This document shows, piece by piece, positions 23,960-27,407 of a stretch of DNA of 59,911 bases. The stretch is from Patescibacteria group bacterium (GTDB lineage: Bacteria; Patescibacteriota; Minisyncoccia; Minisyncoccales; CAZWNE01). The DNA lies in contig JBBTTI010000029.1 in the NCBI GenBank assembly GCA_038078735.1, positions 1 to 59,911 on the forward strand, in the 5' to 3' direction. The number at the start of each line of letters is the position of its first letter. Within the stretch, counting starts at the first letter, position 1. The notes under the pieces are model-generated. The model ran no database searches, was not told the origin of the DNA, and was given only the letters and a program-made list of their open reading frames with translations. The position numbers were made by a program, and so were the translations under genes.

Positions 23960-24672
23960 ATGTCTTGGAATAGTTTAAGATTTTTCTTATATTGCTTTAT
24001 CCAGTCAATAAAAAATTTCTGATAACCTTCTGGACCGCCGAAAAAATTGGACAAAAAATCAGTATTAATTAGGGAAGGAAAATTTTTAATCCCCCAGTAA
24101 TCTTGATGACTTGACCAGCGGTTCTCTTTGTCTGATAAAAATTTTAAGGCGTCTTGAATTTCTGAATCATTAAGTCCTGTTTTCTTCCAGCCGGGTTTCC
24201 ATAATTCTAAAGGATTGGAATGAATATAACAAACCAATTGCCCGACCTGAGTATCATTTATTACTTGAACTTTCTTATATTTCCCCTGGAATAAAACTCC
24301 GCTTCTCTTATTTTTCAAATTAAAATAATTAGTGTATCCTGTTCCAAATTTTTGATGAAACTTCGCTAAATTATCTTTTTCTCTAGGCGAAGAAAATAAA
24401 TGGTAATGATTATCCATTAAACACCAAGCAAATAAATCTACCAGCGATTCCCTTGTTTTATTTTTAATAATAATTTCGCTACTTGCTATGGCGCTATTTA
24501 TCGAAGTCGGACTTCCATAAATATTCTTAAAACGGTGATTAAGATTGGTAACAGCGTTTTTATCGTTAAATTCGTAGATATCGTGAATCCCACGGAAATA
24601 ATCTACTTTATTTAAAAAAATATTCCTTTTTTCGACTCCTCTATTAAAAGTGTGCCAAACTCCGTATTCCAT
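23935..24672 (-). CDS. REP-associated tyrosine transposase-like protein, copy #2
   Basis: N-terminal HTFNRGVEKRNIF. HUH motif MDNHYHLF. Tyr motif LVCYIHSNP. Confidence 0.75.
   Translation of the reverse strand: MEYGVWHTFNRGVEKRNIFLNKVDYFRGIHDIYEFNDKNAVTNLNHRFKNIYGSPTSINSAIASSEIIIKNKTRESLVDLFAWCLMDNHYHLFSSPREKDNLAKFHQKFGTGYTNYFNLKNKRSGVLFQGKYKKVQVINDTQVGQLVCYIHSNPLELWKPGWKKTGLNDSEIQDALKFLSDKENRWSSHQDYWGIKNFPSLINTDFLSNFFGGPEGYQKFFIDWIKQYKKNLKLFQDIFIEVRLR
24496..24522. repeat. RAYT #2 hairpin e2, inside the RAYT #2 coding sequence
   Basis: atttat-c-gaagtc-g-gacttc-c-ataaat. Read in frame as YGSPTSINS (aa 52-60 of the ORF). Confidence 0.8.
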
Positions 24673-24698
24673 ATAATCAATTATATCAATCTAATAGA

Positions 24699-24725
24699 TT
24701 TTATGGAAGTCCGACTTCGATAAAT
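24699..24725. repeat. RAYT #2 hairpin e3
   Basis: ttttat-g-gaagtc-c-gacttc-g-ataaat. This is the reverse complement of e2 at 26 of 27 positions. Confidence 0.8.
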
Positions 24726-24735
24726 TTGCCTTATT

Positions 24736-26718
24736 TCATTTCAAGATTTTTAGGAAATCGGGTTCGGAGAGAATTTTGACGCCTAATTTTTGGGCCTTGG
24801 CCAGCTTGGAGCCGGAGTCTTTGCCTGCCACCACAAAACTGGTTTTTTGAGAAACCGAATTTACAACTTTGCCGCCAAGATTCTGAATTTTTTCCTTGGC
24901 AACTTCCCTGCCCATCGTCTCTAAACTGCCGGTTAAAACAAAAGTTTTGCCTTCTAGTTTAAGGTTTAAGGTTTTAGGTTTAAGGTTTTTTATACTTACT
25001 CCGGATTTTATTAAATCATCAACCAGTTTTTTATTCTGGGTTAACTGAAACCAGTTATAAATGCTTTCAGCGACTTTCGGGCCGACATTGGGAATTTTTT
25101 CCAATTCTCCCATATTTACTCTTGATAATTTATGGATATCACCGAAGTAGTCAGCTAAATCAACCGCTGTTTCTTCGCCAACGTGGATAATACCCAGGGA
25201 AAAAATAAAATGAGGCAAAGTTATAGTTTTGCTTTTTTCCACTGCCTCAATTATATTTTGAGCCTTTTTCTCGGCAAATCTGTCCAAAGACAATAAATCC
25301 TCTTTTTTCAGTTTAAAAAGGTCTGATGCTAGAGAAATTAATCCCGCGTCTTGGAATTGGTCAATAATTTTTGGCCCCAAACCCTCTATGTCAAATGCCT
25401 TTTTGGAAACAAAATACTGCAAAAACTCTCTTTTTCTCGCCCCGCAGTTTTTATTCAGACAGCGCCAGATAACCTCGTTTTCCTTCCTCATTAATTTTGT
25501 CCCGCAAACTGGACAATTTTTGGGAAAATGGACTTCTTTTTCTTTGCCGGTTCTTAATTCGGCTAAAATTTTTATCACATCGGGAATAACGTCTCCGGCC
25601 CGGCCGACAATAACTGTATCGCCAATTTTTACTCCCAGCCGCTTGATTTCATCTTCATTATGGAGAGTTGCTCTTGAAACCGTCACCCCGCTGATTTGCA
25701 CCGGCTCTAAATTAGTAACAGGAGTAATGGCTCCGGTCCGGCCGACTTGAAAAACAATGTCTAAAATTTTAGTAGTTGCCTGTTTGGGCGAAAATTTAAA
25801 AGCGCGAATTGCCCGAGGTGATTTGCCCGCCACTCCCAATTTTTTAAAAAGAGAATTGTCATTGATACTGACAACAATACCGTCTATTTGGAAAGGCAGG
25901 GTCTCCCTTTTTTTATTCACCTCCTGCCAAAAAGAGATAACCTCTTTTAAGTTGCGGCAAATTCTGCCGGGATCGGTTTTAAATCCGAGTGAGGGTAAAA
26001 TGGCGTGCTCTTCTGAATGTTTTTTTTGACCAAAATCCGTAACAATGTCATAGGCCAAAAATTTCAAAGGCCTAGAAGCGGCTAATTTCGGATCTAATTG
26101 GCGGATAGAACCGGCAGCCAAATTCCGGGGATTGGCAAAAGAAGATTTAAACTTTTCAAAATCTTTTTTTGCCATATAGACCTCCCCCCGAACAATAAAT
26201 TGTTCGGGAATTTTCAATTTTAAATTTTCAATTTCTAATTTTAAAGGAATGCTTTCAATGGTTTTTAAATTTTGAGTGACATCCTCCCCTATTTTTCCAT
26301 CGCCTCTTGTTGAGCCGCTGATAAAAATTCCATTTTCGTAAATTAAGTTTATGGCAAAGCCGTCTATTTTAAGTTCAACAAAATATTCCGATCCGTCAGC
26401 TGACGGAGCGAGTCTTTTTATATAATCTTCCCAGTCTTGCAGTTCTTTTTCAGAAAAAACATCTTCAATGGAAAGCATTGGAGCGGAATGTTCAACTTTT
26501 TTAAATCCTTTTGACGCCAGCCCGCCGATTCTCTGGGTCGGAGAATCGGCAGTAATAAATTCAGGAAACTGCTGTTCCAATCGGAAAAGCTCGTGCTTTA
26601 AAGAATCTAAAGCCGATTCAGAAATTTCCTGCCGGTCTTCAACATGATAAAGATAACGATGATGATTTATCAGCGTTTTCAGTTTTTCAATTCGTTGTTT
26701 AATTCCTTGTTTGGTCAT
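24736..26718 (-). CDS. ligA: NAD-dependent DNA ligase
   Basis: Adenylation-site motif VELKIDG. Zn-finger CPVCGTKL...CLNKNC. HhH region and C-terminal BRCT (KTFVLTGSL...GGKV). Start set to MTKQG (26718) because the ORF-track N-extension is encoded by a REP hairpin. Confidence 0.95.
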
Positions 26719-26729
26719 TTTGAAATAAA

Positions 26730-26748
26730 GTGAACGTCGCATGTTCAC
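26730..26748. repeat. RAYT #3 hairpin f1
   Basis: gtgaac-gtcgcat-gttcac. Lies between the RAYT #3 stop and the ligA start. Confidence 0.7.
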
Positions 26749-26756
26749 GCACTGCG

Positions 26757-27407
26757 CTACTTATAATTTTTCAACCACTCAATAAAGTCTTTTTTAAATT
26801 TATCCTCATTGGTTTGAAATAATTCATAAAATAAACTTTTATTAACAAATGGAAACGAATTTTCTTTACCAATTAAATAAGGCAAGCTTGACCAACGATA
26901 ATTTTCTAAAAAAATAATAACCTTATTTAAATTTCTTATTCCTTTTTCTTTCCAGTCGGGCTCAATTAATTTAACCGGATTTGCCATTATATAAAATGGC
27001 AGACGCAAGAAATGCGAATCTTTTTTTATTGGAATTATTTTTGACCTTCCCTGAAATAAAACTCCACTTCTTTGATAATTTTCATTGACATATTTAGTGT
27101 ATCCCCCAAAAATCTTTTTAGAAAAAACACTCGCCCCTCGATCAATTACCTCTTGGGCTAAATTATGGCTGTGATTAGGCATCAAACACCAACAAAGAAG
27201 ATCTATTAATTTTTCATTATTAGCACTATTGGTGGACATCGCATGTCCACTATCTCGAGCATTACATCGACGAGGATAAGGAATAGCATGTTGAGTACTG
27301 TTAAAGTCAAAAAGATTATGAATAAATCTAAGGTAATCTTTTTCCGAGCTAAAAATTTCCCTTTTTTCTATCCCCCTATTTAGGATGTGAAAAATTTCAC
27401 CCTTCAT
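26757..27407 (-). CDS. REP-associated tyrosine transposase-like protein, copy #3
   Basis: [16 protein letters not shown] motif MPNHSHNL. Tyr motif LPFYIMANP. Confidence 0.75.
27232..27250. repeat. RAYT #3 hairpin f2, inside the RAYT #3 coding sequence
   Basis: gtggacat-cgc-atgtccac. Read in frame as SGHAMST (aa 53-59). Confidence 0.8.

Follow-up and report, generated by a model that had tools for sequence, protein, structure and literature searches.

Why should a gene for a transposase-like enzyme keep, within its own reading frame, a copy of the very palindrome that lies on both of its flanks? The question is raised by the window analysed here, a stretch of 59,911 nt of the Patescibacteria contig JBBTTI010000029.1, which holds four genes (R1-R4) for proteins resembling the tyrosine transposases associated with repetitive extragenic palindromes (REPs), or RAYTs. 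An earlier sequence-only reading of this DNA had counted three such genes, one too few. In R2 and R3, the palindrome occurs upstream of the gene (copy U), inside the gene and in frame (copy I), and downstream of it (copy D), while R1 and R4 possess flanking hairpins and no internal copy. Comparison with related loci shows this pattern to be real, widespread, and unusually clean.

Private palindromes of R2 and R3

R2 (23935..24672, minus strand) encodes a Y1/HUH (RAYT/TnpA_REP-like) protein of 245 aa, and R3 (26757..27407, minus strand) a Y1/HUH paralog of 216 aa that is 33% identical to it. The palindrome belonging to R2, hairpin family A (ATTTATCGAAGTCGGACTTCCATAAAT), is found exactly at 24496..24522, where it is read in frame as codons 51-60 of the protein (…YGSPTSIN…). 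Its upstream copy at 24699..24725 is the reverse complement of the internal copy at 26/27 positions and places its proximal arm over the -35 position of the R2 promoter, and its downstream copy at 23933..23959, which matches at 26/27 positions in the same orientation as the internal one, overlaps the R2 stop codon (23935-23937). R3 is associated with hairpin family B (GTGGACATCGCATGTCCAC), which is exact at 27232..27250 and read in frame as codons 53-60 (…SGHAMST…), matches the internal copy at 18/19 positions upstream (27436..27454), and is degenerate downstream (26730..26748; 16/19), where it lies between the R3 stop codon and ligA and is followed by a T-rich tail. Both internal copies are located on the minus strand, in the coding region that follows the N-terminal NRG strand and precedes the HUH motif. 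No further copy of hairpin A or B occurs elsewhere in the 59.9-kb window, and the number of copies expected in shuffled sequence is 0 for each. The sequence-only reading had reported these hairpins at the same coordinates and had placed the translated copies between NRG strand and HUH motif, at residues 53-59 of both proteins; the hairpins are where it put them, at codons ~51-60 (R2) and ~53-60 (R3).

Folded as DNA and compared with shuffles, the internal copies give z-scores of -3.4 to -1.75 on the two strands for R2, and of -2.9 and -3.0 for R3. The downstream copy of hairpin A reaches -4.8, and that of hairpin B, the most degenerate of the six copies, gives the weakest value at -0.08. On the minus strand, the latter copy resembles a terminator, and the GTG given as the ligA start by the mechanical list of open reading frames overlaps with it. 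With this degenerate copy and an unusual HUH motif (NHSH), R3 may be decaying. At 27461-27470, 7 nt past the upstream copy of R3, GTATGTCCAC represents part of an additional arm of hairpin B, as if it were the remnant of a tandem or slipped copy.

Co-variation of three copies across related loci

A set of 160 related loci from Patescibacteria was used to assess the generality of this arrangement. Most of the genes hold a strong DNA hairpin, with a stem of 9-22 bp and a very diverse sequence, in the interval bounded by the conserved EFN and NHxH motifs. In 91 non-redundant loci, the best site for the internal hairpin within its own 200-nt flanks has a median identity of 0.92 upstream and 0.95 downstream, against a median of 0.57 in the flanks of other loci (Mann-Whitney p = 3e-85). 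An unbiased reverse test, in which a palindrome is derived from the two flanks alone and the whole gene is then scanned at a threshold of at least 16/19, identifies a palindrome common to U and D in 107/119 non-redundant complete loci and an interior copy in 88 of these 107 (82%), whereas foreign palindromes are found inside genes in only 11/532 control trials (2%). All but two of the interior copies (86/88) fall at codons 48-69, within the same segment between helix A and the HUH strand. The 83 triads represent 33 hairpin types and 65 distinct stem codes. The expectations of the sequence-only reading that homologs would carry, at an equivalent structural position, a hairpin matching their local flanks, and that this copy changes in step with the flanking ones, are thus borne out in 88/107 loci. 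The homologs also exclude a chance insertion private to this genome, in keeping with the earlier view that random insertion is the less likely origin.

The internal copy is nonetheless not universal. Nineteen of the 107 loci in the R2/R3 clade keep U and D without I, some of them with relics (15/19 matching positions) at the codons in question. A subclade of six loci (L035, L038, L052, L055, L057, and L059), 40-43% identical to R2, has intact genes and shows neither a common flank palindrome nor an internal hairpin. Relatives of the R1/R4 type are absent from the 160 fetched loci and were sampled separately as eight loci (L161-L168) in addition to the two window genes, R1 (10395..11120, minus strand; flanking hairpins at 10365-10387 and 11137-11161) and R4 (30089..30811, minus strand; flanking hairpins at 30053-30077 and 30824-30848). 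The proteins of this sister clade are uniform in length (241 +/- 3 aa), and a locus-specific hairpin is common to both flanks in 10/10 loci (16-17/17), but an interior copy is present in 0/10, the best interior match of 10-12/17 being at chance level. Because all ten sister-clade loci and 19/107 loci of the R2/R3 clade do without it, the internal copy is an innovation of one clade, long retained, and not a general requirement of these enzymes.

Family-wide, the palindromes are 25-31 nt long and locus-specific. Seven stem positions use all four Watson-Crick pair types with 87-100% pairing, compared to 10-30% for shifted partners; the pairs T.A at position 2 and G.C at position 6, counted from the center, do not vary and have variable positions between them. 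The hairpins of R2 and R3 both obey this archetype and are therefore variants of one element, so that the earlier description of two families unrelated in sequence does not stand.

Over the central 25 nt, identity is 0.917 between I and U, 0.915 between I and D, and 0.926 between U and D, with no significant difference, and stem quality is equal in the three copies (9.9, 9.9, and 10.0 of 11 pairs). The internal copy is not a decaying relic. It is under a coding constraint: when the U or D version is swapped into the gene, an in-frame stop codon arises in 61/153 cases, compared to 17.6% for the same number of random changes (excess p = 8e-11), and where I differs from U and D, the coding frame often explains the difference.

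The peptide encoded by the hairpin varies with frame and orientation (GSPTSI, GYPISI, EVGLP, DIGRP, and GFTKS, among others), two of the three reading frames being used. In the AlphaFold2 model of R2, residues 43-71 form the sole long segment of low confidence (predicted local distance difference test below 50), located between the helix at 22-35 and the HUH β-hairpin at 78-96 (strand 78-85); whether residues 50-62 form a loop was among the checks that the sequence-only reading had proposed, and the model answers in favor. As the peptide changes with frame and orientation and the loop is disordered, the constraint acts on the nucleic acid, and the protein tolerates it. For the same reasons, the idea that the hairpin-encoded peptide itself recognizes the hairpin finds no support. 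The loop holds tandem partial repeats of the hairpin-encoded segment in L021, L089, L123, L005, and L096 (GNVGRATGNVGRAT in L021; LNVRDLNVRD, RPYIRPYV, and others elsewhere), which suggests repeated slippage or re-insertion at the same spot.

In locus pairs with 85-88% nucleotide identity, alignment is confined to the span between the outer edge of U, ~40 nt before the ATG, and the outer edge of D, ~23 nt past the stop codon, and the sequence beyond these edges is unrelated between them. Since alignment stops at the outer edges of U and D, the unit is a discrete cassette bounded by palindromes. Exactly three hairpin copies are present in 44/91 loci, and extra copies beyond 250 nt are found in 11/91 (17 copies in 339 kb of flanks). 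The hairpin is dispersed between genes in some genomes (eight copies in 6.6 kb at L072 and six at L063; also L141 and L033), forming REPIN-like inverted doublets at L033, and these dispersed copies support a REP/RAYT relationship for the cassettes.

Possible roles of the internal copy

The position of the upstream copy bears directly on what the internal copy may do. A TATAAT-like -10 hexamer starts 12-15 nt 5' of the ATG in 61/127 loci, at exactly 12 nt in 33 of them, and half of these hexamers have an extended TGn, while a Shine-Dalgarno-like motif is seen in only 4/91 loci. A -10 hexamer so near the ATG, combined with the rarity of Shine-Dalgarno motifs, is the signature of a leaderless transcript. 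In the window, a position-resolved scan identifies extended -10 elements for both genes, which a generic scan had missed because it needs a -35 hexamer: that of R2 at 24680..24688 on the minus strand (TGATATAAT on the coding strand) ends 7 nt before the ATG at 24670-24672 and is not accompanied by a Shine-Dalgarno motif, and that of R3 at 27414..27421 on the minus strand (TGTTAATAT on the coding strand) ends 6 nt before the ATG at 27405-27407. U is centered over the -35 position, at a median distance of 23 nt upstream of the -10 hexamer. U is thus located upstream of the predicted transcription start and outside the predicted transcript, and for this reason an element common to U, I, and D is not explicable at the RNA level.

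The explanation that we favor, with about even confidence, is that the internal copy is an old in-frame REP that has been kept as a cognate DNA site, most likely serving cis-acting capture or autoregulation together with the copy at the promoter. The arrangement would have started with an REP insertion into a permissive loop of a RAYT gene. Thereafter the internal copy would have belonged fully to the REPs private to that gene, staying in agreement with U and D over dozens of hairpin changes, with avoidance of stop codons as its sole limit. Acting as DNA, it would provide a third cognate site for the encoded enzyme, so that newly made enzyme might be captured on its own gene and, in conjunction with the promoter copy, dampen either its own expression or its activity. 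A theme of tight self-limitation in the RAYT enzyme class is apparent from E. coli TnpA_REP, a monomer whose C-terminal tail auto-inhibits it (Messing et al., 2012).

Several points weigh against this proposal. The monomeric state of E. coli TnpA_REP means that dimer bridging of two sites is not to be assumed (Messing et al., 2012), and the internal copy is dispensable, as shown by the 19/107 loci and the sister clade that lack it. The relative orientation of U, I, and D is unfixed (++ 22, -+ 20, -- 18, and +- 8), and the distance between U and I shows neither helical phasing, with no periodicity of 10-11.5 bp, nor a constraint on spacing, both of which strict looping predicts. Near-perfect palindromes would, moreover, suit a hairpin in single-stranded DNA and a symmetric operator in duplex DNA alike. 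Finally, the in-frame REPs of TnpA_Y1 subclass 2.4 have been read as tolerated and peripheral (Quentin et al., 2018, PMC6006769). DNA looping with a fixed geometry can be rejected as such, since the standard deviation of the U-I distance, 25 nt, is no smaller than the 23 nt expected from two independent parts.

The main alternative to capture and autoregulation, though a less likely one, is that the internal copy is a passenger, a selfish REP in a loop that accepts any peptide, kept like its flanking relatives by REP homogenization and without a role for gene or host. The disorder and variable length of the loop, the difference of the encoded peptides with frame and orientation, the partial tandem duplications within the loop (for example GNVGRATGNVGRAT in L021), the loss or decay of the internal copy in 19/107 loci, some of which preserve relics of it in the same place, and its complete absence from the sister clade are all compatible with this idea, which is also the reading given for subclass 2.4 (PMC6006769) and accords with the intragenic REPs known from unrelated genes (PMC3733652). 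A passenger kept uniform by homogenization thus fits most of the data. Some copying mechanism is in fact needed by this explanation and by the favored one alike, because independent mutation to a new stem code at three sites is implausible; candidate processes are enzyme-mediated replacement, template switching, and short-tract conversion. The difficulty for a mere passenger lies in efficiency: retention of 82% over 33 hairpin types, at flank-level conservation and stem quality, would require very efficient homogenization of a 25-30 nt repeat, and L048, L051, L063, and L153 keep a fixed one-base difference of I from U and D over ~14% nucleotide divergence, which makes frequent overwriting unlikely.

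It is improbable that the enzyme instead nicks its own gene at I, which would then serve as a protected REP donor (a master copy) or as an origin-like cis-acting site. Precedent exists in the pT181 plasmids, where the nick palindrome is part of the rep coding sequence and the protein can do without the residues that it specifies (Kwong et al., 2017, PMC5703833), and the palindromes here are perfect and adjoined by A/T-rich arms that would suit cruciform extrusion. A copy within an essential part of the open reading frame is, in addition, not deletable without killing the gene, and the hairpin is dispersed in some genomes. Most loci, however, have three copies only and no REP population to feed, the 60-kb window itself containing 0 extra copies; no conserved cleavage motif was identified beside the hairpins, and no gene fragments broken at I were found.

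Very little credence is given to the possibility that I is an alternative end or switch, which by pairing with U or D would excise, delete, or invert part of the gene and thereby allow programmed self-inactivation or a mobile U-I mini-element. Three equivalent sites are available, roughly half of the loci have U and I in inverted orientation, and two rearranged loci invite the idea. At L160 (1091-1410), ~134 nt (codons ~9-52) are duplicated in tandem, with the first copy frameshifted, and the duplication ends at the edge of I; at L141 a truncated gene abuts the hairpin. The L160 junction, however, lies at a 7-nt GATTGTT found both around codon 9 and in the left arm of the hairpin inside the gene, a microhomology that ordinary slippage explains, and in ~340 kb of flanks none of the eight extra RAYT-like regions is a fragment broken at the position of I, nor is an orphan U-I unit seen, so that I is rejected as a breakpoint. 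A fixed orientation of the three copies, as in the ends of IS200/IS605 elements or the inverted flanks of REPtrons, is likewise rejected, as all four patterns occur; real IS200/IS605 ends are not free in this way. The L141 region (2850-4150 and 5112-5864) contains eight hairpin copies, two of them in frame in the same gene at codon ~55 and codon ~157, the latter directly after the Y motif; the downstream hairpin is followed immediately by the start of a second, 5'-truncated RAYT gene, and 1.5 kb further on lies a third paralog, which is full.

A hairpin working within the mRNA, through ribosome pausing, RNase processing, or binding of the protein to its transcript, the last of which the sequence-only reading had entertained, is equally hard to credit. 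REPs just after a stop codon are known to affect translation and mRNA stability. Both I and D are transcribed, D lying 0-20 nt after the stop codon, and the downstream copy of R3 is terminator-like, but U, of the same sequence, lies upstream of where transcription starts, both orientations of the hairpin to the coding strand occur, the mismatches of the internal stems on the sense strand (8 G.T compared to 23 A.C) are the opposite of a wobble signature, with no G.U excess, and no Rfam match to the hairpin was obtained; an RNA-level element is therefore rejected as the main explanation.

The clade bears on how RAYT enzymes are controlled and on how they keep pace with the sequences of their REPs. 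It offers dozens of natural enzyme-hairpin pairs in which one palindrome lies over a promoter, in frame, and at a stop codon, and because the palindrome is present at all three places, its regulatory and substrate roles should be separable by simple recoding. The 65 matched stem codes constitute a data set for how a Y1/HUH enzyme specifies its hairpin, of practical use for HUH-tags and single-stranded DNA tools. Should the internal copy prove to be a working site in cis, gained more than once among RAYT-type genes, domesticated transposases of single-strand DNA would seem to follow a general logic of self-limitation or self-templating; if it is a passenger, the family would still provide a clear case of concerted evolution of coding and non-coding copies under a stop-codon constraint.

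The enzyme family and its relation to known systems

R2 and R3 are members of a large Patescibacteria clade of class-2 Y1/HUH (RAYT/TnpA_REP-like) genes. R2 carries the motifs NHYH (the HUH motif, residues 88-91), LFQG, YIHSNP, and RWSS, and R3 carries NHSH, LFQG, YIMANP, and RWSS, the catalytic tyrosine motif of both being the Y-x-x-x-N-P of class 2. Profile scores are modest: R2 passes the Pfam Y1_Tnp model marginally (24.8 bits; cutoff 23), R3 does not match it, and both fall far below the cutoff of 80 of the NCBIfam REP_Tyr_transpos equivalog (37 bits for R2 and 27 bits for R3). Apart from Y1_Tnp, no Pfam domain is detected in either protein at E <= 0.01, including a C-terminal helix-turn-helix (HTH) or Bac_DnaA_C-like domain. 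A sequence-only search against the PDB returned nothing significant (E 0.5-0.7), and kinship to solved structures came from a fold search with the AlphaFold2 model of R2 (predicted template modeling score 0.79), the best match of which is the E. coli TnpA_REP-REP hairpin complex 4er8_A (E 1.3e-4; template modeling score 0.56 on the target), with ISDra2 and IS608 TnpA ranking next.

The family comprises 1250 proteins at E <= 1e-5, with 521 relatives among species-representative genomes, and occurs only in metagenome-assembled genomes of the Patescibacteria type (Nealsonbacteria, Paceibacteria, and relatives). Among 136 family proteins of 216-260 aa, the HUH motif is NHYH in 89, NHFH in 35, and NHHH in 9, the NHSH of R3 occurring once (1/136); YIH[LSAF]NP is present in 124/136, G[AV]LFQG in 120/136, and RWSS in 125/136. 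The window paralogs of the two clades are 29-33% identical to each other. R1 and R4, which lie 20 kb apart and have different flanking hairpins, share 63-80% nucleotide identity over their 5' two-thirds but 92-93% over ~180 nt coding for the C-terminal domain (65 aa identical), a stretch that looks like a gene-conversion tract between paralogs.

Cassettes of both clades (L161-L168 and those of the window) sit in short gaps between unrelated housekeeping genes, such as rpoC/ftsK, ftsK/recA, ligA, topA, and peptidases, in a context that differs per genome and is consistent with past mobility. In the window, small genes with prepilin-type N-termini (…GFTLVE/GFTLLE…) adjoin R3 (27502-29267), and upstream of R2 lies an open reading frame of 1344 aa with repetitive β-rich segments (19277-23311). 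The R1-type locus L168 adjoins a gene for an LTD-domain protein.

Close relatives are the REPtron or RAYT-REPIN systems, in which a class-2 Y1/HUH enzyme is flanked by cognate palindromes, the hairpin family differs from paralog to paralog, and copies are dispersed in some genomes (Nunvar et al., 2010; Bertels and Rainey, 2011; Messing et al., 2012, structure 4ER8). The gene-specific palindrome on both flanks that characterizes these systems is found in the window, in 107/119 related loci, and in 10/10 loci of the sister clade. The present family differs from REPtrons in that it has no general 5' GTAG foot and its palindromes are near-perfect, copies are usually associated with the gene only, several divergent paralogs occur per genome (four in the 60-kb window), flank orientation is unfixed, and the genes score under the NCBIfam equivalog cutoff. 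An unpaired 5' GT[AG]G guide at the hairpin foot is not seen in either window family, hairpin A having none and hairpin B containing GTGG…CCAC as paired stem bases.

Compared by motif only, TnpA_Y1 subclass 2.1, or TIRYT, is alike in its NH[YF]H, FQ, and Y[IV]HxNP motifs, its SS tail, and its length of ~238 aa (Di Nocera et al., 2013; Quentin et al., 2018, PMC6006769). Subclass 2.1 is, however, reported without REP-like sequences or with terminal inverted repeats, whereas each flank here is a palindrome, and it possesses a C-terminal HTH/DnaA_C-like domain that is not seen by Pfam in the present proteins. The IS200/IS605 family is distinct, given that the proteins described here have Y-x-x-x-N-P rather than Y-x-x-x-Q and comprise 216-245 aa with a C-terminal extension rather than a ~150-aa core, and that divergent paralogs with unfixed end orientation contrast with near-identical copies bearing fixed one-strand ends.

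Palindromes within coding sequence are known more widely. Rickettsia palindromic elements are short palindromic repeats that lie in frame in permissive protein regions. Intragenic REPs have been reported in unrelated genes (Di Nocera et al., 2013, PMC3733652). Both kinds are scattered among unrelated host genes, while the copies described here reside in the gene of their own enzyme at a position kept family-wide.

The sequence-only reading knew of no description of a RAYT gene containing its own hairpin, but a gene with its own in-frame REP is as such already known: Quentin, Siguier, Chandler, and Fichant (2018, PMC6006769) described in-frame REP insertions inside the tnpA_REP genes of TnpA_Y1 subclass 2.4. 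As in the present family, a REP-flanked RAYT gene there carries in-frame REP copies in a peripheral, variable region of the protein; concerted evolution and function of the internal REPs are not addressed in that study. The hosts of subclass 2.4 are Cyanobacteria and Bacteroidetes rather than Patescibacteria, its motifs are NH[IFV]H, WQ, and YIxNNP rather than NH[YF]H, FQ, YIHxNP, and RWSS, and its insertions fall between β3 and αC, that is, between HuH and Y, whereas the present insertion lies upstream of the HUH motif, normally as one copy in a fixed loop. What differs here is therefore the clade and its motifs, the position, the single fixed-loop copy, the quantified co-variation, the stop-codon constraint, and the location of U over a leaderless promoter.

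A functional parallel is offered by the pT181 plasmid family, in which a tyrosine nicking enzyme likewise has a cruciform-forming cognate site within its own gene, and the specificity of the enzyme diverges together with that of its site (Kwong et al., 2017, PMC5703833). These plasmids differ in that the enzyme belongs to the Rep_trans protein family, the element is a plasmid replicon, and a single site with proven nicking is present, with no flanking copies. By analogy to the pT181 origin in repC, it may be proposed, tentatively and at rather long reach, that the palindrome inside a RAYT gene is a working cis-acting site, be it an operator, a tether, or a nick site, and that such a site has been gained independently at least twice, once in subclass 2.4 and once in the Patescibacteria clade described here.

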